64,000 nucleotides of DNA, taken from the NCBI GenBank assembly GCA_964511345.1, contig CAZEEV010000002.1, forward strand, positions 2,770-66,769, written 5' to 3'. Below the pieces are notes generated by a model. The model worked only from the letters and a program-made list of their open reading frames with translations, did not search any database and was not told where the DNA came from. Source of the DNA: an uncultured Pseudomonadales bacterium. GTDB taxonomy: Bacteria; Patescibacteriota; Microgenomatia; UBA1400; PJMF01. Below, piece after piece: positions 3,530 to 49,088 of the stretch. Each line of letters opens with the position of its first letter. Positions within the stretch are counted from its first letter, which is position 1. Position numbers and translations under genes: made by a program.

Positions 3530-3533
3530 AAAT

Positions 3534-4040
3534 TTAAAAAAGCAAAATTACTAACAAAAAAACAAAATAGCTAAGCACTGCCCAACAAATTTTTTTAATT
3601 AATTCACTTGTAATCTCAATTTTAAACATAGATAAAAAACGTTGTTTAAAAAGCAATGCCTCACTACGTAATTGCCACATTTCTATTAGTAAATAGAAAT
3701 TAATAGCAAGAATCAAAGCAATGCCTAAAATGCTTCCCGAAGAGGTTATAACAAAAATACTTAAGAAAGGTAAAATTAAAAGAAAGAGAAAATTGCGGCT
3801 AGCAGGAATGCAAAAATGCGAGTTGTTTTCGGAAGATAGATCAGGATTTTCTGTATATAGTTTATACAAATATTGTTCATCAATGTACAATAAAACTATG
3901 CCTAAAATATAAGCAGCAATGAAACCGATTAAACTTCCTAAATTTTGCCATGCTTTGAAAAAGAGGATTAAAAAAACTAATAAAGATAATGGAAAAAGTA
4001 CTTTAAAAAGAATCTGTTTTTTAGAAAATAATTGACTCAT
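3534..4040 (-). CDS. polytopic membrane protein, hypothetical
   Basis: 168 aa with 4-5 predicted hydrophobic helices; no motif. Confidence 0.35.
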   Translation of the reverse strand: MSQLFSKKQILFKVLFPLSLLVFLILFFKAWQNLGSLIGFIAAYILGIVLLYIDEQYLYKLYTENPDLSSENNSHFCIPASRNFLFLLILPFLSIFVITSSGSILGIALILAINFYLLIEMWQLRSEALLFKQRFLSMFKIEITSELIKKICWAVLSYFVFLLVILLF

Positions 4041-8281: not shown

Positions 8282-9475
8282 TTATTTATAAGCAATTGGC
8301 ATCGAGGTATCAACGATAGATAAACTCATACGACGCTGTTCTGGAACGACGTTTTCTACGTTTACTGTGACTTTTTCACCAACTTTAAGATCTACACCTT
8401 CTAATTTAGAGGCATGAATTAAAGCATCAACACCTTTTTCAACATTGATAAAAGCACCGAAAGCTTCCACTCTGGTCACTTCACCAGTGAAAGTTGTGCC
8501 AACGCCATAACGTTCTTCAATACTTTCCCATGGATCAGCATCTAATTGCTTAATAGAAAGATTGAGTTTGTTGGTTTTTTCATCAATACCTAAAACTTTA
8601 ACTTTAATACGATCACCAACTTTATGGTAATCTTTTGGATGGTTAACTTTTTCCCAAGAAATTTCAGAAATATGAATTAAACCTTCCACATAACCAATGC
8701 TATCTTTGGCTTCAGAATCTTTAACTGGCACTTCAACAGTTACAAAAAGGCCAAAATGCATAACGCCAGAAACTACACCATCATAAATCTTGCCTTCTTC
8801 AACACTGGAAATAGCTAAATCTTTTTGAGCCAATTCTTTAGCTTCGCTGACATGTCTCTCAGAGAAAATCAAGCGATTTTTTTCACGATCAACTTCGATA
8901 GCTTTGACTGGGAAAGCCATACCCTTGAGGTTTTGAATTTTACCCATGTATTTACGACTAAATTGACTAGATGGAACAAAAGCACGCACGCCATTGACTA
9001 AAACGATTAAACCACCACGGTTCATTTCGATACCCTTGGCTTCTAATTCCTGATCTTTCTCCATGGCTTCTTCAAAATATTCCCATTTAGCATCAGAGGC
9101 TGCACCCTTAAGAGATAAAACTACTTGGCCCTTGTCATTATCAGTTGAAATGACAATGGCTTTGACAGCATCACCTTCCTTGAGTTCTCTAACAAAATCA
9201 ACTGCAAATTCGAATTCTTTTTCGGAAACAATTCCTTCAGTTTTAGAGCCTAAATCAATGATTAGACTTTTCTTATTCTTTTCGACGATCACACCAGAAA
9301 CGGTGTCACCTTTTTTTGGGATCACTAGCTTACCTGCGTTAGCAGTTAAGAGCTCCTCCATAGTTTGTAATTTCTTGACCGTTTTATCAGTCATAGCAAA
9401 AATATTTCCTTTCTTTTTGGATTGCGAGATTGTATCATGAAAGTCAGAGTTTCGCACCTTAAACTCAAAGTACAA
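8282..9475 (-). CDS. rpsA: 30S ribosomal protein S1
   Basis: Four S1-like OB repeats (GDTVSGVIVEK, GGLIVLVNGVRAFVPSSQ, GKIYDGVVSGVMHFGLFV, GTTFTGEVTRVEAFGAFIN); 397 aa. Confidence 0.8.
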   Translation of the reverse strand: MYFEFKVRNSDFHDTISQSKKKGNIFAMTDKTVKKLQTMEELLTANAGKLVIPKKGDTVSGVIVEKNKKSLIIDLGSKTEGIVSEKEFEFAVDFVRELKEGDAVKAIVISTDNDKGQVVLSLKGAASDAKWEYFEEAMEKDQELEAKGIEMNRGGLIVLVNGVRAFVPSSQFSRKYMGKIQNLKGMAFPVKAIEVDREKNRLIFSERHVSEAKELAQKDLAISSVEEGKIYDGVVSGVMHFGLFVTVEVPVKDSEAKDSIGYVEGLIHISEISWEKVNHPKDYHKVGDRIKVKVLGIDEKTNKLNLSIKQLDADPWESIEERYGVGTTFTGEVTRVEAFGAFINVEKGVDALIHASKLEGVDLKVGEKVTVNVENVVPEQRRMSLSIVDTSMPIAYK

Positions 9476-9511
9476 AAATTAATTAACATAAATAAAGGTA
9501 AACAAAAAAAT

Positions 9512-10804
9512 ATGCTTCACACTCCTAAAGTTCTAGATATTAAAGACAAAACTGTGCTGGTCAGAGTTGATTTTAACGTGCCACTCAAAAAAACTATTGA
9601 TAATGGCACTCCTAAATACAACGTGGCTGATGATCAACGCATTAGGAGTTCACTAGAAACTTTACTTTTTTTGAAAGAACACGACGCAAAAATTATTCTT
9701 ATTTCTCACCTTGGAAGACCAGATGGTAAAGCAATTAAGGAATTTAGTTTAGAACCAGTAGCTTCCTATCTCAAAAATAATCTTGGATTGGATGCGCAAT
9801 TTGCCGCAGACTGCATAGGCAATCAAGTGACTAAAAAAGTTGCCGAATTAAAAAAAGGCGAAATTCTATTACTAGAAAATCTTCGTTTCCATGAGGAAGA
9901 AGAGGCTAATAATGCTGATTTTGCTAAAGAAATCATCAGAGACACCAAGGCAGAAGTGTTTATTAACGAAGCTTTCTCTGCTTCTCACAGAGCTCACGCC
10001 TCTGTCGTAGGCATTGCTCCATTTTTACCAAGTTTTGCAGGTTTTGATTTAGCAGCAGAAGTTAATATTTTAATTAAAATCTTGGAAAAAGCTCCTCGCC
10101 CATTTGTAGTGGTACTTGGCGGAGCAAAAATTGATGACAAGGTTTCTGCAGTTAGAAATTTGTCCAAATTAGCCGACCTAGTTCTGGTTGGTGGAGGGAT
10201 TGCTAATGCGTTCTTAAAAGCTAGTGGTATTGAGGTGCACAAATCGTTTATGGGAAAAAATGCAGAAGAAAACGTTAAAATTGCTAAAGAAATTCTTTCT
10301 GAACACCAAACAGAAAGAACTATGATCGATGTAGAAACAAACAGCAAAGGTTTGCCACTACCAAAAGTGGTAGTACCAGTTGACGTTTTAGTTGCCAAAA
10401 ATCCAGATGTAAGTAATGAACGGGAAGTGACTCGTCTCGAATTATTAAAAAATGTTAAAGACAGCGAGACTGATTTAGATCTTCAATACTTAGATATTGG
10501 CAAAGAAACTATAGCTTTATATAAATATTTATTATCAAAAGCTAAAACAATTTTTTTCAACGGCCCACTAGGCGTCTTTGAGAATCCACTTTTTGCCAAA
10601 GGTAGTAGAGAAATTGCTAAAGCTATTGCCAACAATACTACTAACTCAGCAACCGTCACTATTTGCGGTGGAGGTGAAACCAACGCGGTGATTAATGCTT
10701 GCGGTCTGCGAGACCGTTTTACTCACGTTTCAACAGCCGGCGGAGCCGCTTTAGAGTTCTTAGGTGGAGAAAAGTTGCCAGGTATTGAAATACTAAAAAA
10801 GTAA
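9512..10804 (+). CDS. pgk: phosphoglycerate kinase
   Basis: KTVLVRVDFNVPL, ILISHLGRPDGK, VVLGGAKIDDKV, GGGIANAFL, ICGGGETNAVI, STAGGAALEFLGGEKLPGIE. The ORF-track start at 9422 overlaps rpsA; the ATG at 9512 (MLHTPKVLD) is the likely start. Confidence 0.9.
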   Translation: MLHTPKVLDIKDKTVLVRVDFNVPLKKTIDNGTPKYNVADDQRIRSSLETLLFLKEHDAKIILISHLGRPDGKAIKEFSLEPVASYLKNNLGLDAQFAADCIGNQVTKKVAELKKGEILLLENLRFHEEEEANNADFAKEIIRDTKAEVFINEAFSASHRAHASVVGIAPFLPSFAGFDLAAEVNILIKILEKAPRPFVVVLGGAKIDDKVSAVRNLSKLADLVLVGGGIANAFLKASGIEVHKSFMGKNAEENVKIAKEILSEHQTERTMIDVETNSKGLPLPKVVVPVDVLVAKNPDVSNEREVTRLELLKNVKDSETDLDLQYLDIGKETIALYKYLLSKAKTIFFNGPLGVFENPLFAKGSREIAKAIANNTTNSATVTICGGGETNAVINACGLRDRFTHVSTAGGAALEFLGGEKLPGIEILKK

Positions 10805-10819
10805 TTTAAATTTTGGTAG

Positions 10820-12979
10820 CTATTCTTTGGGTAACGGCCAAAAGCTGCTCCAACTGTCTATATCTTTGAAATGTTCGTGTATTTTTTCTAGTCTCACCTT
10901 TTCTTCTGGAGTCTTGCCAACAGCAATTACTTCACGCCATAGAGACCAAGCAAAGTTTGGCTGCTTAGCTATTATTTCTTCTGTCAAAACAAAATAATCG
11001 TCTAACTGGTCATTTTTAAATAAATAGGTTAAAGTTTTTCCATAGAGGCCCATGTACTCATAAAAGTATTTATTCATTAATTCCGGATTAAAATCTTTAA
11101 AATACTTAAGAAAAATTGCAACTTGAGACAAATTATTGTCATCCAAAAAAGCTGATCGTCTATCTCCCATGACAAATTTATTAAGAAAAATGGCTTTTTT
11201 ATAATAACTAGCTGCCAATTCTAGATTTTTTTCTGTATAAGCTTGATTAGCAAAATTGAAGAATTGCTGAGACAAATTCCTCTGATCCCAATAATTTAGA
11301 AAGATCCCATTGTTTAAAAAGTTGTATTTAACGAGCACTTCAATATATTTATTTGCAAGAAGATCAGCAGTTCGATAATCATATTGGTCAAATTCCACAT
11401 TATTGATAAAAGAAGATGGATCAAGATCGGCATATTCAATCTGTAAAATTGCTCTTTTGTCAGGGTTTACTGAAGCAATAGAAAAAAATCTAAATAGAAA
11501 CTCAGTATCATATTTATAAAGCGGATATAGAGTCATAAAATTTTCATATGACAATTTTCGATCATTTAAAAGCAAGCGAACTTGGCGATCTGAATATGGC
11601 AAATATTTAACAATCAATCCTGATTTATTAAACCTATAAAGGACCTGCGCAAAGAAGCTATATATAGCAAAAAAAGCGGTAATGATTAGGATAAAGATAT
11701 AGTATTTTTTATAGAACTTTGTTTTCAAATCAACTCTATTATGATGATCTTCTCTTAAAATCATGGCTAAAAATATTAGAGTTAAAGTAAAAATAACAAA
11801 AAAGTTCCAATCAAAATCAAACATAGCATTTAGTAAAGATGCAGAAGCAGCTAACCATAAAAATTTATATAAATGCTCATTATCACTTTTGATGAGTACA
11901 AAGCTTCTATGGAAAATATAGAATACGAAAAAAATAAAAAAACCACCAACTAATATTCCACATTCAGCTAAATTATGTAAAAAGATATTGTGAGCATAAG
12001 AAGTAACTTGCTGATCTTTAATAGGAAATTGACGATTAGCAAAACCAAAATTTTTAAGCCCTACTCCAAAATAAGGATTTTGCTTAAAAATAAGTATAGC
12101 TTTTTTCCAGTATACAAGGCGATAATTCTCCAAAAGTGGTTTGCAAATTTCTTTGTTTGTAAATACGAGAGGACAAAAACTTTCTCCATTCTTATTGAAA
12201 GGTATGGAAAGAAATAAAAACAATATTCCTATTGATAAAAAAGTAAAAATAAATGTTTTACCAATAATTCTAATAAAATTGTTATTTTCTAAAGAAGCAA
12301 AAGCTTTTTTGTTTGTAAAAAAAATTAGAATTAATTGAATTAAAGAAATCAATAAAGCCAATCTCGCTAAACTTAGAATAATTAACAAATATGAAGAAAT
12401 TAATAAAATAATTATTAAAAGATTAGTTTCTTTAGTATTAGTTTTTCTTTCACCTTTAAATAGAAATTGCCACCAAAAAATAGGTATCATTAGCAATAAG
12501 AAGGCAACGTAATGATTATGCCCATAATTTCTTACTAATAAGTTCATGCCTGGAAAAATATCCTGTTGATTTTTATAAAAGGTAAAAAATAAAACAAAGA
12601 TATTAATTATCAGGGTCATAATTGACGAAAAATAAAAAAACAACTTAGGTTCGATGGTATTAGTTTTAGAAGAATTAAAGAACACAAAAATGGCCAAAGA
12701 TACTAAGTAAAAAAGCAATTTTTCAATAGATAGTGGAATTTGCCTTGAAAAGATAATACTCAGAGCAAATAGCACTGATAAAATTAAGGCAAAGACAGAT
12801 GCTTTCGGCATTTTTGGTTCAAAGAAGTTAATCTTATCAGCCAATCTACTAAAAAATAATAAAAAGATGGTCCATAAACTAAATAAATAGAAGCGATACT
12901 CTCCCTCAATTAAAAAAAATGATAAAAGGAAAAGCAGAAAAAAAATGGGATAAAAAAAGTTTCTAAAAAATTTTTCCAT
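10820..12979 (-). CDS. O-antigen ligase/polymerase-like (Wzy_C) membrane protein with large C-terminal non-membrane domain
   Basis: About 12 TM helices and the motif YAHNIFLHNLAECGILVGGFF, typical of the Wzy_C/WaaL family; 719 aa. Confidence 0.55.
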   Translation of the reverse strand: MEKFFRNFFYPIFFLLFLLSFFLIEGEYRFYLFSLWTIFLLFFSRLADKINFFEPKMPKASVFALILSVLFALSIIFSRQIPLSIEKLLFYLVSLAIFVFFNSSKTNTIEPKLFFYFSSIMTLIINIFVLFFTFYKNQQDIFPGMNLLVRNYGHNHYVAFLLLMIPIFWWQFLFKGERKTNTKETNLLIIILLISSYLLIILSLARLALLISLIQLILIFFTNKKAFASLENNNFIRIIGKTFIFTFLSIGILFLFLSIPFNKNGESFCPLVFTNKEICKPLLENYRLVYWKKAILIFKQNPYFGVGLKNFGFANRQFPIKDQQVTSYAHNIFLHNLAECGILVGGFFIFFVFYIFHRSFVLIKSDNEHLYKFLWLAASASLLNAMFDFDWNFFVIFTLTLIFLAMILREDHHNRVDLKTKFYKKYYIFILIITAFFAIYSFFAQVLYRFNKSGLIVKYLPYSDRQVRLLLNDRKLSYENFMTLYPLYKYDTEFLFRFFSIASVNPDKRAILQIEYADLDPSSFINNVEFDQYDYRTADLLANKYIEVLVKYNFLNNGIFLNYWDQRNLSQQFFNFANQAYTEKNLELAASYYKKAIFLNKFVMGDRRSAFLDDNNLSQVAIFLKYFKDFNPELMNKYFYEYMGLYGKTLTYLFKNDQLDDYFVLTEEIIAKQPNFAWSLWREVIAVGKTPEEKVRLEKIHEHFKDIDSWSSFWPLPKE

Positions 12980-13009
12980 TACTTTCTTATAAGAATATAC
13001 TCAATATTA

Positions 13010-14335
13010 TCACGATCCAGGGTGAACAACATAAGCTTTATATAATTTTTTAAACTCATTAAATCTACCATATCTAAATTCACACAAATTTTTGAGAAAC
13101 AATAAAGCAAACTTCCTAATAAATTTGCCATCTAATGAATGAAAAGACGAAGAAATACTTCGTATTCTCAAGATTGACGTCTTTGTTATTTCTTTCTCTA
13201 AGAGTTTGTTAATAGGCGAAAAAATGTGTAAATGCTGTTCAGAATTTAGATAAATTGGTCTAATGCCTAATTTCAATAAACGGTTATACTGGGCAAGAAA
13301 TTCAGTCTTGATATCATCAATTTTAATCAAACCTAAATTTAACCTCAACATAAAAAAGAATAAATTATAAAATTTGCCACTCGAATCAACTAAGCTTTTG
13401 ACCTTATCTACATCTGTACAGGGCTTACCTCTTAAAAGATTAAAGTGCATTGAGTAATCAATAGGATTTTGAGCCAATTTTAACTTTTCCAAATCAGACT
13501 GTTTAACTAAATTGGGCATAATAGAAACTACATTTAAAGACATTGAATTTACTTCATCGAGAATTGCCTGATTAACTCTGCTAGAAATTCCAAAGTCATC
13601 AGCATCTATTAGGGAGCAGAAAAAAACACTTCTAAAGAAATATTTAGTTTTAATAATAGAAATTAAATCACTAATAGTTGATTTAATTCTTCTAGTTCCA
13701 AAATACCTTGATTTTCTTAATTCAACTATTTTCTGCGGTAAATCAACAAAAATAGCACCATTTTTAGTTAAACGTAAGATTAGCTCCGTATCAAAAAGCT
13801 CATTTTGAGTTCGACAGCTCTTGGCAATTTCCACTAAGTTTTCAGATTTGCGAAAAGCCTTAATTCCATGAGTATCGGTCCCTGGATAGTTGAGCACTAA
13901 TCTTAAGAAAACATTGAAAAAATAAGTCATCATTCTTCTAAAAAAAGACCTCTGGTCATCGCTACTCGTTAAAGTTTTGGATCCAATTACAACGTCAATT
14001 GTTTTCAACAACTTATTAGCTTTCTCTATAAAATCAAAATCAAAATAATCTACATTTAATACAAAAACATTTTTCCCAACAGCGTTAAGAATGCCCCACC
14101 TAATAGCCATACCATATGATGGACTTGGAAAGTGATGGGCTTTAACAAAAGCATACTTTTTTTCTAATCGTTTAGCTATTAACCAAGAATTATCACTACT
14201 ACCATTTTCTACTAAAATAACTCCAAATTTATTTTGATATTTTTTATTTGCAAAATCGAAAAATTTAGTTAATTGATTTTCTAAAAATAAGGCCTCATTG
14301 TGAATTGGGAAAATGAATGAATAAATTTTTAGCAT
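13010..14335 (-). CDS. bifunctional GT2 glycosyltransferase fused to a YdjC/ChbG-like carbohydrate deacetylase
   Basis: N-terminal YSFIFPIHNEALFLE...VILVENGSSDNS (GT2); C-terminal CSLIDADDFGISSRVNQAILDEV matches the YdjC family N-terminal ADDFG signature. Confidence 0.6.
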   Translation of the reverse strand: MLKIYSFIFPIHNEALFLENQLTKFFDFANKKYQNKFGVILVENGSSDNSWLIAKRLEKKYAFVKAHHFPSPSYGMAIRWGILNAVGKNVFVLNVDYFDFDFIEKANKLLKTIDVVIGSKTLTSSDDQRSFFRRMMTYFFNVFLRLVLNYPGTDTHGIKAFRKSENLVEIAKSCRTQNELFDTELILRLTKNGAIFVDLPQKIVELRKSRYFGTRRIKSTISDLISIIKTKYFFRSVFFCSLIDADDFGISSRVNQAILDEVNSMSLNVVSIMPNLVKQSDLEKLKLAQNPIDYSMHFNLLRGKPCTDVDKVKSLVDSSGKFYNLFFFMLRLNLGLIKIDDIKTEFLAQYNRLLKLGIRPIYLNSEQHLHIFSPINKLLEKEITKTSILRIRSISSSFHSLDGKFIRKFALLFLKNLCEFRYGRFNEFKKLYKAYVVHPGS

Positions 14336-14338
14336 TTT

Positions 14339-15811
14339 TTATTTAAAGTTCAATATATACAAAGATTGATCATTATTCTTATCTACAAATTTTTTATTTG
14401 AGTTAGAATCAGAAAAAATTTGATAATAAACTTGCAAGTCTTCTCTATTCTTGTCTACAGAAGTTTGATTTAGCATGTATATAACTGAACAATCTTTAGT
14501 TTCTTCACGAAGCAAATTGTTGCTGGAATTGTAAATAGGAATAACTTTAACTTTTTGCCCCAAAAAATATCTCAAAGATAAATAATTCCAATATGGCATC
14601 GGGATGATACAACTATTTTTTTCAAAATTATAATTTGCAAAATATGCAACTGGATGATGGCGATAGTCAAAAAGATAATACATATAGTCTGTTTTTTTAT
14701 GGTCGGCAAAATAAATAAAAAATTGACTAATTTGAAACACAATCATTACGTAAACAATTGATTTAATTAACTTTGAATTGAGAGCATAGATATCGGCAAT
14801 GATAATGTAAAAAATAATAGCAAAAGTAATCGAAGTTCTGGCATAAAGAAGACTTCTATCAGTTAAATACACAGCTAAGATAAAAAATAAAAAGAATATT
14901 GCCAAAGAAATAACCACAGACAAAATATATTGATTCTTTTTTTTGTTAGACAACCAAATAATCATAAAAACAAACAATATTAAAAACGGAATAACCAAAA
15001 TGTTGAGTTTATTTAAATCGAAGTATCTTGGAATAATACCAAAAAAATTACCAATCATTTCTAAGGTATTCTGAAAGTTTAATGGTGGTGCCCATTGATT
15101 GACTGCAATACTGTACTCAGCATTTTTAACAAATTTAGGCATAAACCAGCTAATAGACAATAAGAATGTAGCAGATGAAAAAAATGCTGTTTTAAAAGCT
15201 GGCAAACTCCTCTTATATAAAAAATAAGCCAATGGCCAAAGAGGAATTATCCAAACCATGCTGAAATTTGAGAAAAAACCGAGCGAGGCTATTAAACCTA
15301 AAAAAATAGAGGTTTTCATAGAAAAATCATGGTTTTTTTTGATCAAGTAATACCAAAAAAGAGAATAAAAAACAGCTATCCCTAAAACTAAAGAATACAT
15401 CCTATGCTGGAACGTGATATGAACAAAGTAAACATTTGTTAAAAATAGCGTTAAAAAAATGAATAAAAAAGATTTAGGAAGTTTGTTTTTAAAATAAAAA
15501 ATAGAAAAAGATAATAAAACAAAAAGAATAACCACTTGAATTAATCGATAATAGAAGATTCCATGAATAATACCTAAAAAATGTGTCGGAATTTCCATTA
15601 ACATATACCAAAACCCGGGATGACTTATGTCTGGTGAAAAGAAAAAATCACGGAAAGAATAAATATTATTGATATCTATTGATAATATCTCGTCCTCTAT
15701 TGTGTCATGCTCTAAATGAGCAAAATATCTTGGCACAAACAAAAGGACCGCAAACAATGCAAAAAACAGAAATTGTCGGCATCTCTTACTAAACTTCTTT
15801 TTATTGATCAT
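14339..15811 (-). CDS. GT-C fold membrane glycosyltransferase (PMT/ArnT-like, GT39/GT83-type), paralog A
   Basis: About 11 TM helices; acidic DE motif in the first extracytoplasmic loop (HLEHDTIEDEILS); full-length paralog of the split pair at 20762-22194. Confidence 0.5.
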   Translation of the reverse strand: MINKKKFSKRCRQFLFFALFAVLLFVPRYFAHLEHDTIEDEILSIDINNIYSFRDFFFSPDISHPGFWYMLMEIPTHFLGIIHGIFYYRLIQVVILFVLLSFSIFYFKNKLPKSFLFIFLTLFLTNVYFVHITFQHRMYSLVLGIAVFYSLFWYYLIKKNHDFSMKTSIFLGLIASLGFFSNFSMVWIIPLWPLAYFLYKRSLPAFKTAFFSSATFLLSISWFMPKFVKNAEYSIAVNQWAPPLNFQNTLEMIGNFFGIIPRYFDLNKLNILVIPFLILFVFMIIWLSNKKKNQYILSVVISLAIFFLFFILAVYLTDRSLLYARTSITFAIIFYIIIADIYALNSKLIKSIVYVMIVFQISQFFIYFADHKKTDYMYYLFDYRHHPVAYFANYNFEKNSCIIPMPYWNYLSLRYFLGQKVKVIPIYNSSNNLLREETKDCSVIYMLNQTSVDKNREDLQVYYQIFSDSNSNKKFVDKNNDQSLYILNFK

Positions 15812-16790
15812 ATTCGTTGAATAAATTATTTTTTAGGTAATCAAAAATTGTAAGAGCAATTGTATGATGTCCATCTGAATTAGGATGCCCATCAGGCAAA
15901 GTTTGCTTCTTATCAGAGAGATTCGGAACTAAAGAAGCAAATATAGTCATAGGATATCTAGATTTCCACTTATTTAAAATGTCTATCTCTGGAGAACTTA
16001 AATTGTCTTCTTCGTAAGTAAACACTAAAACTGTATTATTACTTGTAAACGCGTAAAAATCATCGAGACTATTGGTAATAATTTTGTCTACTTCCCCTTT
16101 ATACTCATTTTCGATTTGTTGTTGTGCTTTTAGCCAACAGTTAACAACTCCTCTACTACTTGTGTCAGAATTCTGAGCCTGACAATCATCAATTATTGGC
16201 GCCATTAATTCAGACAATCGATTAAATCCAGAGCCACCTTCAAACCAAATAATTAAGTCTGGATTGTATTTCATACCAATATCTTTATATCTTTTAACTA
16301 TGTAAGGAATATCAAAACCAGGCATTCCTAGATTTATGACCTCAAAATGCTTGATGTTAGAAATATTTAGCAAAGAGTTGTTCAGCATGCTCTCTAATTG
16401 CTCTGTCCAATTTTCATTTGTGTTAACAAAATGACCGTATGTAAAAGAATCCCCTAAAGTAACAATACGAAATGTATCTGTTGATTTTTCTAATTCATAA
16501 TCAAAACGATCATGTAAACCATCAACATTGTAGTTATACTTCACTTGATAGCCAAGCCATTTTGGCTCATCTGTAGCAATAATATTCGGTTTTAATTCCC
16601 AATAATGCTTATACTCTGATTCTTTCGGGAAAATTAAATTTTCCTTTTTAATTATTGTGGCCTTATCTGGATCTTGAGTTTTATAAACAATTTTTTTTTG
16701 GTAAAAATTAAAAAGAAAAATAAAACCAATTATCAACTCTATTGCGATTACGGCAATTAAAATAATTTTCTTTTTTTTACTTGAACTCAT
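15801..16790 (-). CDS. SGNH/GDSL-family hydrolase (esterase/acyltransferase-like), membrane-anchored
   Basis: N-terminal TM helix; block I VTLGDSFTYG; later conserved Gly, Asn and DGHH blocks consistent with an SGNH fold. Confidence 0.55.
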   Translation of the reverse strand: MSSSKKKKIILIAVIAIELIIGFIFLFNFYQKKIVYKTQDPDKATIIKKENLIFPKESEYKHYWELKPNIIATDEPKWLGYQVKYNYNVDGLHDRFDYELEKSTDTFRIVTLGDSFTYGHFVNTNENWTEQLESMLNNSLLNISNIKHFEVINLGMPGFDIPYIVKRYKDIGMKYNPDLIIWFEGGSGFNRLSELMAPIIDDCQAQNSDTSSRGVVNCWLKAQQQIENEYKGEVDKIITNSLDDFYAFTSNNTVLVFTYEEDNLSSPEIDILNKWKSRYPMTIFASLVPNLSDKKQTLPDGHPNSDGHHTIALTIFDYLKNNLFNEYDQ

Positions 16791-16809: not shown

Positions 16810-16950
16810 TCAAAAAAGCATATAAATAAAAGCACCAACTGGAGAAACTTGGGCAAAAATAATCAGGGCTCCAAAAACTAAAAAAATCAAAACTGGAGGA
16901 ATCAACCACCACTTTTTATTTTGCCACATAAAATCTAAGATTTCTTTCAT
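16810..16950 (-). CDS. small membrane protein (46 aa), DUF5989-like; absent from the ORF track
   Basis: Manual translation MKEILDFMWQNKKWWLIPPVLIFLVFGALIIFAQVSPVGAFIYMLF. Its ATG overlaps the carbamoyltransferase stop in an ATGA arrangement. As I recall, the pattern (KKWWLIP...aPFIYtLF) matches small proteins that commonly follow carbamoyltransferase genes. Confidence 0.45.
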   Translation of the reverse strand: MKEILDFMWQNKKWWLIPPVLIFLVFGALIIFAQVSPVGAFIYMLF

Positions 16951-18701
16951 TTTGCCTTTCTCATTGTCTTTTTACTCACCACAAACTGATCTATTACTAA
17001 ATAATCTATATCGGTTTTCAACAAACAATCAACAGCCTCATTGGGACGACAAATAATTGGTTCGCCTCTGACATTGAATGATGTATTAATTAAAATTGGC
17101 ACACCAGTTTTTTTGTAATATGCATTTAGCAAATCATAATACATCTTATTATCATTTGGGCGCAAGCTCTCTAAGCGACCGCTACCATCAACATGAACTA
17201 CAGCTGGAACTATTTTTTTCTTGTTCGATAAAAATGGATAAACAGTTAACATCCAACGATTTGATGGTGATTGATCATTTTTAGTTTTTTGACTCATTTT
17301 AAAATAATCAGCAATTTGATCTTCAAAAATTACCGGAGCAAAAGGTCTAAAAAGTTCTCGATTTTTAACTCTGCTATTAATCACTTCTTGCATTTCTTTA
17401 TCAGTAGCTGCCGCTAAAATACTACGATTCCCAAGAGCTCTTGGGCCCCATTCCATACGTCCCTGAAACCAACCAACAATTTTTCGATCAATTAGATAAT
17501 CAGAAATTAAATTCAGTAAACTTTTCTTGGAAATGATTAATTGATAATCTATCAGATTATCTTTTTTATATTTTTTCAAACATTTTTCAATTTGTGACCA
17601 ATTAAACTCAGGGCCAAGATATGGAGAAAAATTATTGCCTAAAGATTTTTTATCCAAACAATCAAATTTATTAGCAAAATACAAAGCAGCGCCCATAGCT
17701 CCGCCGGCATCACTTGGATCTGGTGGAATAAACAATTTTTTAAATGGCGTATTATCCAAAATCTTGCCATTAAGGACTGAATTAAGCGCCACTCCTCCAG
17801 CTAAACAAAGATTAGGATTTTTTTGTTTTTCGTAAACTTTGTTTAACAGGTTAAAAGTTAGCTCTTCTAACTTAAACTGCAGTGTTGCTGCTAAATTTTC
17901 ATGAAATGACTTGATTTCAGACTCCTTAGTTCTTGATTGATTCTCAAAAAGCTCAATAAATTTAGAAGAATACATTCTGTCTCCATAGCCAAAAGAAAAA
18001 TATTCCATGTTTAATGAATAGCTGCCATCTTTGTGAACTCGAACCAGTTTGGTAAATTTATTCAATAATTTTTGATCAACGTGACCGAAAGCCGCTAATC
18101 CCATGACTTTATATTCAGCGTCATTAGCTTCAAAACCTAGATATGTAGTAAAAGTGCTATAAAGAAGCCCAAGTGAATTTGGGAAATTAATTTGCTGATC
18201 AATTTTGATATTTTTGCCAAAACCACGCCCCACCGTTGTCGTAGCCCACTCTCCAACCCCATCTAGAGTAACAATGCTGGCGGAATCAAAGTTTGATAAA
18301 TAATAGCTACTGGCAGCATGAGCGAAATGATGATCAACAAAAAAAACTTTTCCATAATAGTTGAGTTGCTTTTTAATAATTTCACGAAAACGCAAACGAT
18401 GAGTCAACCACTGCCCCATATGTTTAATAAAATTTAGATAACTCTTTGGAAAATACTCTAAATGTTGTGTAAAAATTCTTTCTAATTTAATAATTGGTTT
18501 TTCATAAAAAATCACTGCATCTAGTTCATTTGCAGCAATGGCTGATTGACTCAAACAAAAATCAATTGCCTGAGAAGGAAAAGAATTGTCATGCTTAATT
18601 CTAGAAAATCTTTCTTCTGCTGCCGCAGCAATTATTTTGCCATCAACAATTAAGCAGGCGGCTGCATCATGATAATAACAAGATATACCAAGTATTTTCA
18701 T
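16947..18701 (-). CDS. carbamoyltransferase (NodU/CmcH family)
   Basis: N-terminal MKILGISCYYHDAAACLIVDGKIIAAAAEERFSRIKHD, the hallmark of the NodU/CmcH/HypF-like carbamoyltransferase N-terminal domain; 584 aa with a C-terminal carbamoyltransferase domain. Confidence 0.85.
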   Translation of the reverse strand: MKILGISCYYHDAAACLIVDGKIIAAAAEERFSRIKHDNSFPSQAIDFCLSQSAIAANELDAVIFYEKPIIKLERIFTQHLEYFPKSYLNFIKHMGQWLTHRLRFREIIKKQLNYYGKVFFVDHHFAHAASSYYLSNFDSASIVTLDGVGEWATTTVGRGFGKNIKIDQQINFPNSLGLLYSTFTTYLGFEANDAEYKVMGLAAFGHVDQKLLNKFTKLVRVHKDGSYSLNMEYFSFGYGDRMYSSKFIELFENQSRTKESEIKSFHENLAATLQFKLEELTFNLLNKVYEKQKNPNLCLAGGVALNSVLNGKILDNTPFKKLFIPPDPSDAGGAMGAALYFANKFDCLDKKSLGNNFSPYLGPEFNWSQIEKCLKKYKKDNLIDYQLIISKKSLLNLISDYLIDRKIVGWFQGRMEWGPRALGNRSILAAATDKEMQEVINSRVKNRELFRPFAPVIFEDQIADYFKMSQKTKNDQSPSNRWMLTVYPFLSNKKKIVPAVVHVDGSGRLESLRPNDNKMYYDLLNAYYKKTGVPILINTSFNVRGEPIICRPNEAVDCLLKTDIDYLVIDQFVVSKKTMRKAK

Positions 18702-18898
18702 TAAAACATCTTTTCTAGATTGTCACCTTCTTTAAAGTTTGTATAACTAGTTTTTTTATTATTTTTACTCTTCAATAACAAGAAATCCTTAGCAACAATT
18801 CTAGCAAAAATGGCAGTAAAACCTATACCAATAAAGTAAACAATCGACAATAAAATGAAATTAGAAAGAATTGTAAGCTTTTGTTTAATTATCTTCAT
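18701..18898 (-). CDS. small membrane protein (65 aa) immediately upstream of the carbamoyltransferase (SxtJ-like position)
   Basis: Single TM helix; 1-nt overlap with the carbamoyltransferase start; the positional analogy is an inference. Confidence 0.35.
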   Translation of the reverse strand: MKIIKQKLTILSNFILLSIVYFIGIGFTAIFARIVAKDFLLLKSKNNKKTSYTNFKEGDNLEKMF

Positions 18899-19994
18899 AG
18901 ATTGCCTTTTCTTTAAAAATAAAGTTAAAAAATAGAATATTGCCTACTTTTTCTTGGCCACTAGCACCTAGATGACGGACGCCTATTATCTTTTCTTGTT
19001 TCCAAAAATCAGATTGATCTAACATTTCCAATGAACTCATACTCTCATTTTTATACATAGAAATAAATCTTGAATTATTTTGCAAGATATTAGTCATTTC
19101 ATTTTGAAACCTTAAAAAAGAATCATAAAGAACAAATCCTTGCTGTTCATCTAATTTAGCACAACCATTTGAATCAATGACCTCGCATTCTAATGGAGAC
19201 ATTGTTGTGACTAATTTAAAATTATATTTTTTCTCCAAAACTTTCATTTCATTAAGTAAAAAAGTAATTTTTTTATTATTGAAATCGAGTAATAAGTTCG
19301 GGTCACTTTCAATATGAAACCAATCAACTGAAGCGTCTTTCTTTAACTCACCAAAATAAAGTAAGAAGTCTCCTAAATTAGTATTTTTAACAATCGGCAA
19401 TTTTTGATAAATCCAACCTGACCAGAAATAGAAATTTTTAAAAGATTTTTCCCTATGAAAAGAATCTCCTTCTAAGCTGTAAAGTGGCTTTTCCACATTA
19501 TCAAACAAATCATTCCAATAAAATTGCCATATAACTAATTTTGGTCGTAAAAACTTAACAATATCAGTAAATCTGGCAAATTGTTGATCATTGCCAGTTC
19601 CATTAGTTGCAATTCTAATTAATCTGTAGCAATTGTGATTTTTGACAGAAAGTCTATCTACGAAATGCTCAGCATACGGCTTGCCTTCGTAGTCCCATGG
19701 CGAATCTGTAAATGAATCTCCTAGAACCACTATATTTTCACAGTTACCATAACTTTTATTTACGTAAATAACTTTTGAAGTTGAAAACTTCTCTAAAGGT
19801 TCTTCACATATAGAATCCTTGCAGTAAGATTTACCCCAATAAATATATCTCAAATCAAACTTATCGTTTATAGCAGCTTGCAAAATGAAATTTGGTTTGC
19901 AATCGCTACAAAAACGAGGGATAAAATGATTAATAATAATCATGCTTATCAGCAATGAAAAAATAATCATCAAAATAGCCATTACTCTCTTCAT
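18885..19994 (-). CDS. membrane-anchored SGNH-like domain protein (GDSFT motif), paralog A of the C-terminal half of the 22203 protein
   Basis: N-terminal TM helix; VVLGDSFTDSPWDYEGKPYAEHFVDRL...NDQQFARF...WQFYWNDLFDN aligns with LFLGDSFTNSPWNEYDHSYTEYFVSNL...NDQQFARF...WQFCWNDFYEN of the 22203 protein. Confidence 0.4.
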   Translation of the reverse strand: MKRVMAILMIIFSLLISMIIINHFIPRFCSDCKPNFILQAAINDKFDLRYIYWGKSYCKDSICEEPLEKFSTSKVIYVNKSYGNCENIVVLGDSFTDSPWDYEGKPYAEHFVDRLSVKNHNCYRLIRIATNGTGNDQQFARFTDIVKFLRPKLVIWQFYWNDLFDNVEKPLYSLEGDSFHREKSFKNFYFWSGWIYQKLPIVKNTNLGDFLLYFGELKKDASVDWFHIESDPNLLLDFNNKKITFLLNEMKVLEKKYNFKLVTTMSPLECEVIDSNGCAKLDEQQGFVLYDSFLRFQNEMTNILQNNSRFISMYKNESMSSLEMLDQSDFWKQEKIIGVRHLGASGQEKVGNILFFNFIFKEKAIYEDN

Positions 19995-22202: not shown

Positions 22203-24329
22203 CTAGTAATTTTCATGTATCGATTGATTATTAGAAATAAAATTTAAAAATAAAATATTGCCAGCTTTCTCTTGACCACTAGGCTCCAAGTGACGAGTGC
22301 CTATATTTTTTTCTAAAACAGAAAAATCAGATTGATTAAATATTTGCTCTTTTGTTAAGGAATCGCTATCAGACATGGAAACAAATTTAGAATTACGTTT
22401 TAAAATATCCACTAAACTAGTTTGTATTATAAAAGCGTCAGTATTGTCTAATTCATCTAAAATGCCACATCCCTCAGAAAAAACAAGCTCACACTCTAAG
22501 GGAGAAATTGTTGTAGCCAACTTGAAATCATATTTTTTTGCTAAAAATTTCATTCTATCTAAAAAATATATAATTTTGTTCTCGTTAGAATTTATTAATG
22601 AATCCAAATTTCCTTCAACTTCAGACTCATTTATAAAAAAATTATTATTTTTTTCTCCAAAATAAAGTAAAAAATTACCTAAATTAGTATTAACTAAAAA
22701 TGGAAACTTTTGATTGAGCCATCCAGCCCAAAAGTAGGAATTTGCGTAGGATTTTTCTCTGTGAAAGTTGCCATTATTATCTAATTTATATAAAGGTCTA
22801 TCAAAATTTTCATAAAAGTCATTCCAGCAAAATTGCCAAAAAACCATTTTGGGCTTAATAATGTCGATAATGTCTAAAAATCTAGCAAATTGTTGATCAT
22901 TGTTAGTAGCACTAGTAGCTACCCTAACAAGCGAATAACATTTTTGATCTTTAGCTGCAAGATTAGATACAAAATATTCTGTATATGAATGATCATATTC
23001 GTTCCAAGGAGAATTTGTAAAAGAATCTCCTAAAAAAAGTATTTTTTCACAATTACCAAGATCTTCGTTATAAGATACAACTTTATTTGTTGAATACATT
23101 TCAGCAGAATTCTTACAATTAGTTTTACAATAAGAATTCCCCCAAAAAACATATTTTGGATCAAAAACTGCAGAATCAACCAGTATCTGGATAAACTGTG
23201 GTTTGTAATTTTTACAAAGATAAGGAATTAAAAAATTAAGTATAACTAAAGAAAATATTAAAGAGGCGATAAGAGAAGAAATAACTAAAAGAATTCTAAA
23301 AAAATTTATTTTGTTATTTATAGCACTAAACCAAGAAGATTTTGAGCTACCTTTAATTTCTTTTTCAATCCAAAGATAAGTTTCTTTCATGCCTTTTTTC
23401 AAAGAAATACTTGGCTGCCAATTTAAATATTTTTTAATCAAAGTATTATCACTACTTCTGCCACGTACACCTTTTGGGGCATCGGGATTATAGCGATGCT
23501 CCAGTTTTGTCTGAGCTATCCCTTCGATTAAATCTACAAGTTCATTAACAGTAACCAGCTCATTTGTGCCCAAATTAATTGGCTCTTTAATGTCACTGTG
23601 CATGATTAGATCGATACCTTTGACACAGTCATCAATGTACATGAAAGTTCTTGATTGCTTGCCATCTCCCCAAATTTCAATTTCTTTTTGTCCTGAAATT
23701 TTAGCTTCAATTACTTTGCGAATTAAGGCAGCGGGAGCTTTTTCTCTACCACCTTTGTACTCTCCAAATGGACCATAAACATTATGAAAGCGTGCAACTC
23801 TAGTTTCTAAGCCAAAATCCTCCATAAAATGGCGACACAAACGCTCAGAAAAGAGTTTCTCCCAACCATAACCATCTTCTGGCATAGCTGGATAAGCGTC
23901 TTCTTCTTTAAGACCAGCAATTTTAGCATTTGTTTGTTTATTAGCCGCATAAACACAGGCAGACGAAGAATAAAAGAATCTGTTAACCCCAGCTTCTTTA
24001 GAAGCCAGAAGCATGTGAGTATTAATCAAAACATTAAGCATGCATAAAGCTTTGTTGCTTTCTATAAAACCCATGCCACCCATATTTGCGGCCAAATTAT
24101 AAACTTCATCCATGTTTTTGACCGCAGTCTTACAATTTCGCAAATCTTTCAGATCTAAACTCAAATTCTCTACTCCCATGCTCAATTGGTGCCAATCTTT
24201 AAGAGGCTTTATATCTACTGCACGAATTTTTCGATAACCTTGCTTTTGCAAATATTTAATTAAGTGCCCACCTATAAACCCACCAGCACCAGTCACTAAA
24301 ACCTTAATTTCTTTTTTTGATAAACTCAT
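22203..24329 (-). CDS. NAD-dependent sugar epimerase/dehydratase (extended SDR) fused to a TM segment and a C-terminal SGNH-like domain (paralog B)
   Basis: N-terminal Rossmann VLVTGAGGFIGGHLIKYL; catalytic-region SSSACVYA...Y..AK context; mid-protein TM helix; C-terminal half paralogous to the 18885 protein, including LFLGDSFTNSPW. Confidence 0.65.
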   Translation of the reverse strand: MSLSKKEIKVLVTGAGGFIGGHLIKYLQKQGYRKIRAVDIKPLKDWHQLSMGVENLSLDLKDLRNCKTAVKNMDEVYNLAANMGGMGFIESNKALCMLNVLINTHMLLASKEAGVNRFFYSSSACVYAANKQTNAKIAGLKEEDAYPAMPEDGYGWEKLFSERLCRHFMEDFGLETRVARFHNVYGPFGEYKGGREKAPAALIRKVIEAKISGQKEIEIWGDGKQSRTFMYIDDCVKGIDLIMHSDIKEPINLGTNELVTVNELVDLIEGIAQTKLEHRYNPDAPKGVRGRSSDNTLIKKYLNWQPSISLKKGMKETYLWIEKEIKGSSKSSWFSAINNKINFFRILLVISSLIASLIFSLVILNFLIPYLCKNYKPQFIQILVDSAVFDPKYVFWGNSYCKTNCKNSAEMYSTNKVVSYNEDLGNCEKILFLGDSFTNSPWNEYDHSYTEYFVSNLAAKDQKCYSLVRVATSATNNDQQFARFLDIIDIIKPKMVFWQFCWNDFYENFDRPLYKLDNNGNFHREKSYANSYFWAGWLNQKFPFLVNTNLGNFLLYFGEKNNNFFINESEVEGNLDSLINSNENKIIYFLDRMKFLAKKYDFKLATTISPLECELVFSEGCGILDELDNTDAFIIQTSLVDILKRNSKFVSMSDSDSLTKEQIFNQSDFSVLEKNIGTRHLEPSGQEKAGNILFLNFISNNQSIHENY

Positions 24330-29634: not shown

Positions 29635-30720
29635 CCCTACTTTTCTTGCATTTTGACCTAATTTATCCATGACTTTTGGATTATCTAGCAAGTCGCTAAT
29701 TCCTTTAGCAAACAGACTTGGTTTTTCTGGTACTAAAACACCTATTTCTTCTTTTTCAAGGATTTTTTTAACTTCACCAGTTGGATTGGCGACAATTGGC
29801 CTCCCAGATGCTAAATAATCGCCTAATTTATTAGGGAACTTACCGAGATTAATTTCTTTTTTAGCGAACGGTAATAGCATGATGTCAGCGGCGGCCAGAT
29901 ACCACACAAGCATTTCTCTAGAAACAACCCCTTGGTTAATAACTTTCTTTTGTTTATAAAATAGTGGCAATTTTGGACCCAAAAGCATTAATGAAACATC
30001 TTTTCTGATTTTTTTAAGCTCATTAAAAGTTTTGAATAATAGCTCATCATCATAAGTGCCAACATATAAATAAACTAGAAATTTTTCTTTTATAGATAAA
30101 GATAGTCTTTTTCTGGCTTCAAGTTTTGAGAGCGGTTTAATAAAATCTATATTGGCACCGACAGGTAAAAAATATACGTTTTTTTTCGATTTTCTAATTA
30201 AAATTGCCTTTCTAATTAAATCGTCACTAATTGCGGTAACGGCAAATGGCAATTTAATAAAAAGTCGCTCAGTATAATGATCAATGTTAGACGTTAAAAA
30301 ACGAAATGGCCCATAGCGACGATCAGCTATGCCACCTTTACCCCATAAATCAGCCCAATCTAAAAACCATTTGGTTTTATTAGAAAATATATATTTAAAA
30401 AACGCCGGCCAGGTGGCAGCAGGACGATGATTAAAACTATGGATCACAGAGCATTTAGAAAATAAAATTGCTATTGTTCTAAAAAATATATCAAAAGGAT
30501 CGTAACCACCCTTTCTGAATCTATATGGAAAAAGACCAATAGACTCAATTACTTTTACTCCATTTTCATAACTTATTTTTGGAAAAAGAGTGCGCTGTTT
30601 AGCACTTGTCCAAAGCGTAACCTCATGTCCAAGTTTTACTAATCCTTCTGCAAGAGATAGCGACCTTAAATAGCTGCCACCTATTTCCTTAGCTTCATAA
30701 GTAGAAAAAATTATGTTCAT
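29578..30720 (-). CDS. GT4/GT1-fold glycosyltransferase
   Basis: N-terminal MNIIFSTYEAKEIGGSY, typical of the GT4 N-terminal domain; C-terminal nucleotide-sugar-binding region (ASGRPIVANPTGE). Confidence 0.55.
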   Translation of the reverse strand: MNIIFSTYEAKEIGGSYLRSLSLAEGLVKLGHEVTLWTSAKQRTLFPKISYENGVKVIESIGLFPYRFRKGGYDPFDIFFRTIAILFSKCSVIHSFNHRPAATWPAFFKYIFSNKTKWFLDWADLWGKGGIADRRYGPFRFLTSNIDHYTERLFIKLPFAVTAISDDLIRKAILIRKSKKNVYFLPVGANIDFIKPLSKLEARKRLSLSIKEKFLVYLYVGTYDDELLFKTFNELKKIRKDVSLMLLGPKLPLFYKQKKVINQGVVSREMLVWYLAAADIMLLPFAKKEINLGKFPNKLGDYLASGRPIVANPTGEVKKILEKEEIGVLVPEKPSLFAKGISDLLDNPKVMDKLGQNARKVGLKLSWKSVAKQLESFYIK

Positions 30721-31487
30721 TTAAACCTTTTCTGAATTATCTTACGCCACAAAACAAAAACCAAGTAATGAGGAATTGTAACTAAATAGCGTCGCCACAA
30801 GCGACTTGGCTCTGAAAACAAACGAAACAACCATTCTAAACTGAAACGTTGCATTAAAAATGGAGCTTGTTTTTTCTGACCAGTTAAAAAATCAAAGGCT
30901 GCGCCAACACAAAAAATTTTAATTCCCCTTGAATGTTTTTTTAAATAAGTTGCCAATTCTACTTGTTTCGGAGAACCAATTCCCAACCAAATAAAGCTTG
31001 CTTTACTTTTTAAGATTTTTTGGAGCATTTTTCTCTCTCCTTCTTGACTAATATCTTTTGGTAAAAAATTAAGTTCAGCATTAATCTTTGGGTAAGATTC
31101 ATTCAGGATTTTAGTTAATTTATCATAGGTTTCTGAATTGGGAGATAAAAAATAATGCTTTCGTTTAGGTTTGGTAACTAACTTTTGTTCTTTGTTTAAA
31201 ACTGCTTTTAGTAAATCAGGACCATATACCCTGTCTATCTTTTTTTTATATTTTAAACGAAAAAAATAAGTTAAAAACATGCTATCACAAGTACAATAAT
31301 CCACATTTTTATATGGATTTGTGATTGATTTTGAATTCCAACTCATGGCCAAATCATTAAGAGAACACGGCAAAATAATGAGAGATTCACTATTCGATTG
31401 CAATTCTTTAGATAGAAAATCAATCGCTCGTGAGAACAGAGCAATTAGAAAAACTTTTCCTTCTAAATAAACAAACATACTTTTCAA
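30717..31487 (-). CDS. WecB/TagA/CpsF-family glycosyltransferase (GT26)
   Basis: C-terminal QAPFLMQRFSLEWLFRLFSEPSRLWRRYLVTIPHYL matches the GT26 signature (eP.w..r..LEWlyRl..eP.Rl.rRY). Confidence 0.7.
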   Translation of the reverse strand: MKSMFVYLEGKVFLIALFSRAIDFLSKELQSNSESLIILPCSLNDLAMSWNSKSITNPYKNVDYCTCDSMFLTYFFRLKYKKKIDRVYGPDLLKAVLNKEQKLVTKPKRKHYFLSPNSETYDKLTKILNESYPKINAELNFLPKDISQEGERKMLQKILKSKASFIWLGIGSPKQVELATYLKKHSRGIKIFCVGAAFDFLTGQKKQAPFLMQRFSLEWLFRLFSEPSRLWRRYLVTIPHYLVFVLWRKIIQKRFK

Positions 31488-46879: not shown

Positions 46880-46886
46880 AAAACTT

Positions 46887-49027: not shown

Positions 49028-49088
49028 AATTTCTGCTTTATAATTTAGTTAGTCACGTTCGACTGAAATTCAAAGTGTTTATTTCTCA

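Follow-up and report, generated by a model that had tools for sequence, protein, structure and literature searches.

We analyzed a 64,000-nucleotide stretch of DNA from an uncultured bacterium (hereafter, the window) in which an O-carbamoyltransferase gene is sandwiched between two very small genes. All three open reading frames (ORFs) lie on the minus strand and encode, in the order in which they are read, a 65-amino acid (aa) single-pass membrane protein that is a truncated SxtJ homolog (18701-18898; here called mini-SxtJ), a 584-aa carbamoyltransferase (CT) of the TobZ/NodU/CmcH type with Pfam domains PF02543 and PF16861 (16947-18701), and a 46-aa single-pass membrane protein of the DUF5989 family, PF19451, at the SxtK position (16810-16950). 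SxtJ and SxtK take their names from the saxitoxin gene cluster, where sxtJ measures 405 nt and sxtK 165 nt (PMC2679770). An earlier reading of the letters by themselves (the original prediction) had placed the three ORFs at the same coordinates, and its translations agree with ours. It had also proposed that the CT gene is translationally coupled to both small ORFs, and the overlaps can be read from the sequence: the stop codon of the 65-aa ORF and the start codon of the CT gene have one base in common (TAATG at 18701), and the CT stop overlaps the start of the 46-aa ORF by 4 nt (ATGA, 16947-16950). In one public assembly of the same sequence (L003; L numbers denote the loci compared), the 46-aa gene is called and carries PF19451. 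In two related contigs, public gene callers passed over DUF5989 ORFs (46-47 aa) overlapping the CT stop (L084, 8758-8898; L088, 5823-5966), and the tiny partners of the CT module are likely to be under-annotated.

The CT matched both of its Pfam domains completely, namely the N-terminal Kae1/ASKHA-like domain (PF02543; 280.6 bits, residues 2-340 on model positions 1-346 of 346) and the C-terminal YrdC-like domain (PF16861; 217.2 bits, residues 402-577 on model positions 3-170 of 170). It also aligned end to end (approximately residues 2-578) with solved O-carbamoyltransferases in the PDB, including 7xb6 (E-value 2.5e-96), GdmN (7e-83), NovN (3e-82) and TobZ (1e-70), and is a full-length NodU/CmcH/TobZ-type enzyme, in line with the NodU/CmcH type named by the original prediction. 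The motifs HHxxH, DGVGEW, PPDPSDAGGA and GPRALGNRS were invariant in an alignment of 15 homologs, as were H124, H125, H128, D147, D328, D331 and G419-P-R-A-L-G424, residues of the putative metal- and nucleotide-binding motifs of the Kae1-like domain, which may map onto the metal ligands of TobZ, and of the GPRALG motif. In TobZ-type chemistry, carbamoyl phosphate and ATP are converted to a carbamoyl-adenylate, from which the carbamoyl group is transferred to a hydroxyl. Given the full-length match to TobZ, GdmN and NovN, the window CT presumably shares this chemistry and carries it out in the cytoplasm; no membrane segment or signal peptide was noted in it. GPRALGRS has been described as the catalytic-site motif of SxtI (bioRxiv 10.64898/2026.06.11.731795). 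Against the NodU equivalog model NF041651, the CT scored 155.7 bits where the cut-off is 1000, which places it in the same superfamily as NodU but not among NodU orthologs. The nearest CT homologs bearing a name were from Patescibacteria.

The original prediction had likened the downstream 46-aa peptide to DUF5989, and it matched PF19451 far above the Pfam cut-off of 27 (59.5 bits, E-value 3.3e-16, model positions 4-49 of 49), a significant hidden Markov model (HMM) match. It contains one hydrophobic segment. Across the DUF5989 family, lysine and arginine average 5.0 in the flank N-terminal to this segment and 0.02 in the C-terminal flank, so that the protein is likely to be single-pass with its N-terminus inside and its C-terminus outside. 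The family ends in a conserved hydrophobic motif (...FIYMLF). We assign the 46-aa protein to the SxtK position, and its putative kinship with SxtK rests on position and size. A literature search on DUF5989 and on 7XB6 returned no papers.

The 65-aa protein was less readily placed. The same Pfam search that settled the identity of its 46-aa counterpart failed to join it to SxtJ: nothing was found at an E-value of 1 or below in Pfam or NCBIfam, including the SxtJ model PF19588 (gathering cut-off 24.4 bits). A single-sequence search of a large protein collection retrieved only the protein itself and one 65-aa relative of 65% identity from another metagenome (L001). Next, 80 loci of CT relatives (40-49% identity) from many bacterial and archaeal phyla were collected, leaving out two duplicates of the window itself, and all ORFs were extracted and searched; the E-values of the two comparisons with long SxtJ proteins given below (HMM and hhalign) refer to a database of 7395 ORFs. 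The 65-aa query alone found ORFs of 71-108 aa (by longest ORF) upstream of the CT (E-values 4e-9 to 5e-5), which directly adjoined it in 9 of 10 loci, and, more weakly, ORFs close to 138 aa in length that follow the CT directly. Iteration merged the short and long groups with a clean gap between E-values of 3e-10 and 0.05, and 29 of the 30 long neighbors were Pfam SxtJ proteins. An HMM built from those 30 long neighbors alone, and thus independent of the iteration, matched the 65-aa protein at an E-value of 1.6e-6 (26.9 bits, model positions 74-128 of 139), where noise begins near 4e-3. Comparison of the short and long alignments with hhalign gave a probability of 99.5% and an E-value of 1e-22, with columns 6-84 of the short form equivalent to columns 70-149 of the long form. 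By these profile comparisons, built from the gene neighborhoods and the sole route by which the homology emerged, the 65-aa protein is a truncated SxtJ homolog that corresponds to the C-terminal half, with one membrane helix and the charged tail, and is devoid of the two N-terminal membrane helices.

The 65-aa protein has one hydrophobic segment, at roughly residues 7-37, whereas long SxtJ proteins showed three in 23 of 30 cases, and its ORF is not extendable upstream. The structure predicted by AlphaFold2 (AF2) was a single helix spanning residues 2-48 followed by a low-confidence tail, and gave no support for a re-entrant hairpin. Its tail motifs are degenerate, reading SYT and EKMF where other short members have SYW and RQF, and it has lost the greater part of the amphipathic stretch that these members carry ahead of the helix. 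The failure of the family model has a simple explanation. In a 138-aa member the Pfam SxtJ model spans residues 14-109, and it therefore overlaps the short forms at their single helix only and misses them; any Pfam SxtJ match at all was obtained for 7 of 25 short relatives, the best at 7e-5.

Conservation of the arrangement was extensive. An SxtJ relative stood beside the CT in 73 of the 80 loci, a DUF5989 protein in 63 and both in 62, while neither partner was found in six loci, three of which are on contigs under 3.5 kb. With J, K and CT denoting SxtJ relative, DUF5989 protein and carbamoyltransferase, the most frequent gene orders were CT-J-K, which is the sxtI-J-K order (24 loci), and J-CT-K, as in the window (22 loci), followed by K-J-CT (11), CT-J (9), J-K-CT (4), J-CT (2), CT-K-J (1) and K-CT (1). 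All partner genes but one were on the CT strand. SxtJ relatives upstream of the CT were mostly short, and those downstream were mostly 129-156 aa in length. In five nearer Patescibacteria contigs (CT identities of 76, 66, 63 and about 57%), an ORF of 69-73 aa lay directly upstream of the CT as a positional homolog of the mini-SxtJ and one of 46-47 aa followed it, in the order J-CT-K, although the surrounding genes had been rearranged. Both small ORFs are therefore conserved beside the CT in related genomes. The data establish what the genes are and how they are related, that their arrangement is conserved and (see below) that it is specific to one clade.

The original prediction had further stated that SxtJ-like and DUF5989 proteins habitually flank carbamoyltransferase genes. 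This holds for one clade of CTs, in which 62 of 80 loci carry both, but not for CTs in general. Seven CTs at 29-36% identity, from Bradyrhizobium, two Burkholderia (one beside a polyketide synthase), Moellerella, Bacillus, Natrinema and Streptomyces clavuligerus, had no SxtJ, DUF5989 or SGNH neighbors, and the association is confined to the one clade. Residues F65, K68, K72, F73, L77, W98 and L103 were at least 90% conserved among partner-associated CTs and different in the seven partner-less enzymes. The region of residues 65-103 is a candidate docking or substrate surface, which we regard as a lead and not as evidence. Some Patescibacteria CTs (599-629 aa) end in polybasic C-terminal tails, and we considered whether such tails replace the small proteins as membrane anchors; this was rejected because the same loci keep both partners. 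On a megaplasmid of Ralstonia solanacearum (L092, 2989-7626), a nolO-like CT, a 68-aa hypothetical protein with a weak match to the SxtJ core (E-value 1e-4), an SGNH-like protein and a second CT (nodU) were observed in that order, and no DUF5989 was found. The module may thus have another version in a pathogen that can be cultured.

The short form is widespread. A profile search of a clustered protein collection returned 587 matches, and the 120 matches listed were all 73-96 aa long, had no Pfam domain and were designated "hypothetical protein" where named. An HMM of the core searched against 1.84 billion cluster representatives returned short and longer forms together, with 6847 matches at E-values of 0.001 or below and 790 at 1e-10 or below. 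Among the 150 of these matches listed, the core was always at or near the C-terminal end, whatever the length of the protein, and lengths fell near 72-82, 95-120, 136-139 and 165-186 aa; a small number of fusions were longer. The conserved unit of SxtJ, as judged from this constant position, is therefore the C-terminal core of about 65-75 aa, predicted to comprise one membrane helix and a tail, to which variable N-terminal helices are added. Because the family models do not cover this core, thousands of short members are without annotation. Three apparent fusions, each seen once, join other domains to SxtJ or to its core: a 739-aa CT-SxtJ protein (L075, 4001-6220), for which an assembly error is possible; a 365-aa GT2-SxtJ protein (L035, 1924-3021), whose GT2 domain was read by eye as DPM1-like, of the polyprenol-phosphate type; and a 266-aa protein with a HAD-type phosphatase and the SxtJ core (P0383). 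The attachment of soluble enzymes to the N-terminus of SxtJ or its core argues that this terminus is cytoplasmic and that the core is able to anchor soluble enzymes.

The trio is flanked on both sides by SGNH proteins. Upstream lies a gene for a 369-aa SGNH/GDSL-like protein with an N-terminal membrane anchor at residues 1-29 (18885-19994, minus strand), the end of which is overlapped by the start of the mini-SxtJ gene by 14 nt, and downstream, 19 nt beyond the DUF5989 stop, begins the gene for a 329-aa SGNH/GDSL-like protein that likewise has an N-terminal hydrophobic anchor (15801-16790, minus strand). Both proteins scored below the cut-off of 32.9 bits for Pfam Lipase_GDSL_2 (PF13472), the 329-aa protein at 25.1 bits and the 369-aa protein at 19.4 bits, and the single 329-aa sequence gave a marginal match in the PDB. 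Profiles were more informative. The 369-aa protein matched the profile of SGNH neighbors at an E-value of 6e-46, and for the 329-aa protein phmmer detected homologs in 13 of the 80 loci and the profile in 40, often immediately beside CT, J or K. In the alignment of the family (A5), 22 of 23 members matched Lipase_GDSL_2 and 8 of 23 matched ALGX; G113, S115 and H302 were invariant, and D114 and D300 were at least 90% conserved (GDS...DxxH). Searched against the PDB, the family profile retrieved many SGNH esterases (best E-value 1.3e-14) and, more weakly, AlgX, AlgJ and PatB1. The profiles and conserved motifs place the two flanking proteins in the SGNH/GDSL superfamily. In the 369-aa protein, a reading of the sequence suggests a GDS motif but no aspartate three residues before the histidine. 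Judging from the N-terminal anchors, both flanking proteins probably have their catalytic domains on the outer side of the membrane. The window holds a third SGNH copy in a 708-aa fusion protein (22203-24329, minus strand), in which an NAD-dependent sugar epimerase/dehydratase is followed by a C-terminal SGNH-like domain closely paralogous to the 369-aa protein (E-value 1e-108).

Across the 80 loci, an SGNH gene occurred within 4 kb in 40, and in 24 of these it was on the same strand and no more than 100 nt from the block of CT, J and K genes. In L004, L008, L010, L063 and L082 it was located between the CT and DUF5989 genes or was translationally coupled to DUF5989. The SGNH/GDSL protein is a recurrent fourth member of the module, analogous in place to sxtL of the saxitoxin cluster. 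The gene sxtL, which follows sxtK, encodes a GDSL lipase for which removal of carbamoyl groups was proposed without a test (PMC2679770, PMC2885083).

The trio and its SGNH neighbors belong to a longer series. From 19994 down to 10820, eight minus-strand ORFs follow one another with small gaps or overlaps, and they are therefore probably a single operon; promoter and terminator scans of the 10.5-20.5 kb region gave counts equal to those of shuffled sequence. The window is AT-rich (24-39% GC). Beyond the 329-aa protein, the series contains three further genes (10820-15811), assigned by Pfam and ORF coordinates, which encode a 490-aa multi-pass membrane protein that matches no family (14339-15811), a GT2-YdjC fusion of a glycosyltransferase and a deacetylase-type domain (13010-14335) and a 719-aa Wzy_C/O-antigen-ligase-like protein, all on the minus strand. 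The 490-aa protein had no match in Pfam or in a PDB sequence search; it carries an acidic HDTIEDE sequence after its first helix and in this resembles GT-C glycosyltransferases, a putative assignment. In L084, the nearest relative, the trio likewise has homologs of the 490-aa protein and the 719-aa protein at its flanks, and the 490-aa homolog (E-value 1e-123) adjoins SGNH genes. In L001 the GT2-YdjC gene (2405-3724) directly precedes the mini-SxtJ gene at the contig end, and PIG-L deacetylases occupy a place similar to that of GT2-YdjC in L087 and L088, so that a deacetylase recurs near the module.

The surroundings are those of a glycan locus, as had been proposed from the sequence of the window. 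They include a Bac_transf initiating sugar transferase, many GT1, GT2 and GT4 glycosyltransferases, two Wzy_C-type proteins, methyltransferases, sugar epimerases and deacetylases in addition to the GT2-YdjC fusion. An ABC-2 permease and ATPase pair (41101-42656, minus strand) together with a transferase of the WecG/TagA family (30717-31487, minus strand) suggests export of a teichoic-acid-like or O-antigen-like glycan that would depend on an ATP-binding cassette transporter. A run of mevalonate-pathway-type genes (45881-51276, minus strand), comprising a diphosphomevalonate decarboxylase, two GHMP kinases and a thiolase-like protein, would fit a local supply of the polyprenol carrier. Related loci had the same kind of glycan or exopolysaccharide (EPS) content, often with a PIG-L deacetylase. 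Elsewhere in the window, a 779-aa protein at its edge (44-2383, minus strand) has TrwB/HerA-type ATPase domains, is type IV coupling-protein-like and is unrelated to the glycan locus. The ORFs for ribosomal protein S1 (8282-9475, minus strand) and phosphoglycerate kinase (9422-10804, plus strand) overlap head to head by approximately 50 nt, and a 125-aa ORF lies antisense within the S1 gene; the TTG starts of the S1 and phosphoglycerate kinase ORFs are probably over-extended by the longest-ORF rule.

We hypothesize, and on balance consider it somewhat probable, that the small proteins hold the cytoplasmic CT at the membrane in order to carbamoylate lipid-linked glycan intermediates, and that the SGNH proteins act after export. 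Those parts of the original prediction that lent themselves to testing all held; its functional proposal, O-carbamoylation of a sugar, possibly at the membrane and through the small proteins, is a hypothesis like ours. The three translationally coupled genes would yield their products in fixed proportion. The mini-SxtJ and the DUF5989 protein would form a minimal membrane platform that keeps an otherwise soluble CT at the inner face of the membrane, where it would O-carbamoylate a polyprenol-linked sugar or glycan intermediate before export, and the SGNH proteins may work on the glycan once it has left the cell, for instance to trim or edit its ester or carbamate groups. From the conserved and clade-specific unit, the membrane character of the small proteins, the stand-alone type of the CT and the fusions, we infer that the small proteins are membrane subunits holding the CT; inference likewise covers its physical association with them, its recruitment to the membrane, its substrate and what the SGNH proteins do.

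A number of points weigh against membrane recruitment. The solved relatives TobZ, GdmN and NovN stand in the PDB as carbamoyltransferase entries of their own, unaccompanied by a partner chain. These three enzymes are soluble and active alone, and partners are therefore not needed for catalysis as such. The substrate in saxitoxin synthesis is a soluble small molecule, for which a membrane anchor is not obviously needed. The topology of the SxtJ tail is itself ambiguous, as the helix of the SxtJ core is rich in lysine and arginine on both flanks, so that positive-inside counts leave the side of the tail ambiguous, and the AF2 tail of the 65-aa protein is of low confidence. If the tail were outside, the window protein, having lost most of the amphipathic stretch, would present very little cytoplasmic surface. 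Finally, the window shows no evident source of carbamoyl phosphate.

Other explanations assign the small proteins a different part. In the main rival, they may couple the two sides of the membrane, with SxtJ and DUF5989 linking the cytoplasmic CT to the external SGNH protein in a four-part complex in which carbamoylation and transfer or editing are coordinated on the same glycan chain, an arrangement that can be loosely likened to the O-acetylation systems composed of MBOAT/AT3 and SGNH proteins. We regard this as unlikely, although several observations on the SGNH genes favor it: their proximity to the module (40 of 80 loci, in 24 on the same strand and within 100 nt), their insertion or coupling in the five loci named above, and the Ser-Asp-His that the family keeps together with its likeness to acetyltransferase-type proteins (8 of 23 members matching the AlgX model; AlgX, AlgJ and PatB1 in the PDB). 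Both small proteins end in conserved C-terminal motifs, which would face outward if the proteins are single-pass with the N-terminus inside, and in the saxitoxin cluster the genes likewise run I-J-K-L, SxtL being a GDSL lipase (PMC2679770, PMC2885083). Half of the loci, however, have no nearby SGNH gene, two to four helices would not suffice to move a carbamoyl group through the membrane, and TobZ-type enzymes transfer directly to the acceptor hydroxyl. A broader version, to which we give no more credence, holds that the CT, mini-SxtJ, DUF5989 and external SGNH proteins would constitute one membrane-spanning machine for carbamoylating and editing surface glycans, in which the conserved C-terminal tails of the small proteins contact the SGNH domain outside the cell, the 65-aa protein represents the minimal functional SxtJ core, and sxtI-J-K-L is a copy of this ancient module for glycan decoration that was recruited to toxin synthesis.

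Less probable still is that the small proteins are a small transport, flippase-like or regulatory device that would handle the carbamoylated product or sense the state of the membrane and is linked to the CT through a shared pathway only. Canonical SxtJ with three helices and DUF5989 with one would total four, similar to small flippase subunits for lipid-linked sugars of the GtrA or ArnE/F type, and the module is found beside polyprenol-phosphate-type GT2 enzymes (the L035 fusion and GT2-YdjC in the window). The pair in the window totals two helices only, though, the conserved part of SxtJ is one helix and a soluble tail and not a transporter-like core, no similarity to known flippase families was found in Pfam, and the CT-SxtJ fusion suits a subunit better than a transporter. 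That the CT modifies a small secondary metabolite, as in saxitoxin and aminoglycoside pathways, and not a glycan, is suggested by its nearest solved or studied relatives, which act on antibiotics and toxins (PMC2679770). We consider this very improbable: no polyketide, non-ribosomal peptide or similar genes were present among the window ORFs scanned against Pfam, the trio neighbors glycosyltransferases, Wzy-like proteins, epimerases, deacetylases and an ABC-2 exporter, the related loci are of glycan or EPS type, and the CTs found in polyketide contexts have no partners. Their very small size (46 and 65 aa), and the omission of the DUF5989 homolog by gene callers in two related contigs, might lead one to dismiss one or both small ORFs as chance ORFs with no product. 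Conservation refutes this, given the family matches, the positional conservation across phyla, the start and stop overlaps with the CT and the thousands of homologs; by these comparisons, neither is a chance ORF.

The module bears on a small and old question. From the first description of the saxitoxin cluster onward, SxtJ and SxtK have been labeled as proteins with no known function that probably act together with SxtI, and reviews as late as 2025 repeat this. The literature still treats both as uncharacterized, much as the original prediction had said of DUF5989, and their joint work with SxtI has been hypothesized only (PMC2885083, PMC12300590). The pair is not a peculiarity of saxitoxin, as SxtJ and DUF5989 are near-obligate partners of one CT clade across many phyla of bacteria and archaea, for the most part within glycan loci. 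The module occurs in culturable organisms (Ensifer/Sinorhizobium, Paludisphaera and Ralstonia), and for the uncultured, reduced-genome bacterium of the window it predicts a carbamoylated surface glycan. Our result sharpens the question, but it is not surprising enough to shift the thinking of the field.

One close parallel is with sxtI-J-K(-L), which shares with the window comparable sizes of the small genes and an adjoining GDSL-type enzyme; SxtK was compared by position and size, and SxtL by position and description. The two differ in gene order (J-CT-K in the window, CT-J-K in sxt), in the SxtJ relative, which in the window has a single membrane helix where SxtJ has three and goes unrecognized by the Pfam SxtJ model, and in setting, since the window is a surface-glycan locus of a Patescibacteria-like genome with two flanking SGNH genes whereas sxt is a toxin cluster. 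One phylogenomic study assigned sxtI, sxtJ, sxtK, sxtL and three further sxt genes to a class that they have in common with cyanobacteria of the Oscillatoriales (PMC2684587). In polysaccharide loci annotated by RefSeq, genes named "carbamoyltransferase", "SxtJ family membrane protein" and "DUF5989 family protein" stand side by side, as in an EPS locus on a plasmid of Paludisphaera borealis, and the pT173d megaplasmid of Ensifer canadensis has in a row a GDSL esterase, a 143-aa "hypothetical protein" that is SxtJ by profile, DUF5989 and a CT. These trios have the canonical SxtJ of about 140 aa, and the window has the short form. TobZ, GdmN and NovN are the same two-domain enzyme as the window CT over its full length (E-values 1e-70 to 1e-83), but they act on soluble antibiotics and have no known membrane partners, and CTs of comparable or lower similarity to the window CT lack SxtJ, DUF5989 and SGNH neighbors. 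A different likeness is offered by WapO (PA5005) of Pseudomonas, a 7-O-carbamoyltransferase of the heptose in the lipopolysaccharide core, whose gene neighbors include glycosyltransferases and a PIG-L deacetylase (PMC8005017); it sets a precedent for the decoration of a cell-surface glycan by such an enzyme. The trio is thus an already known, RefSeq-named and widespread module whose function is not understood, to which the window adds, modestly, a minimal SxtJ variant missed by the family models, a quantified conservation of the neighborhood with its restriction to one clade, and a recurrent SGNH partner.

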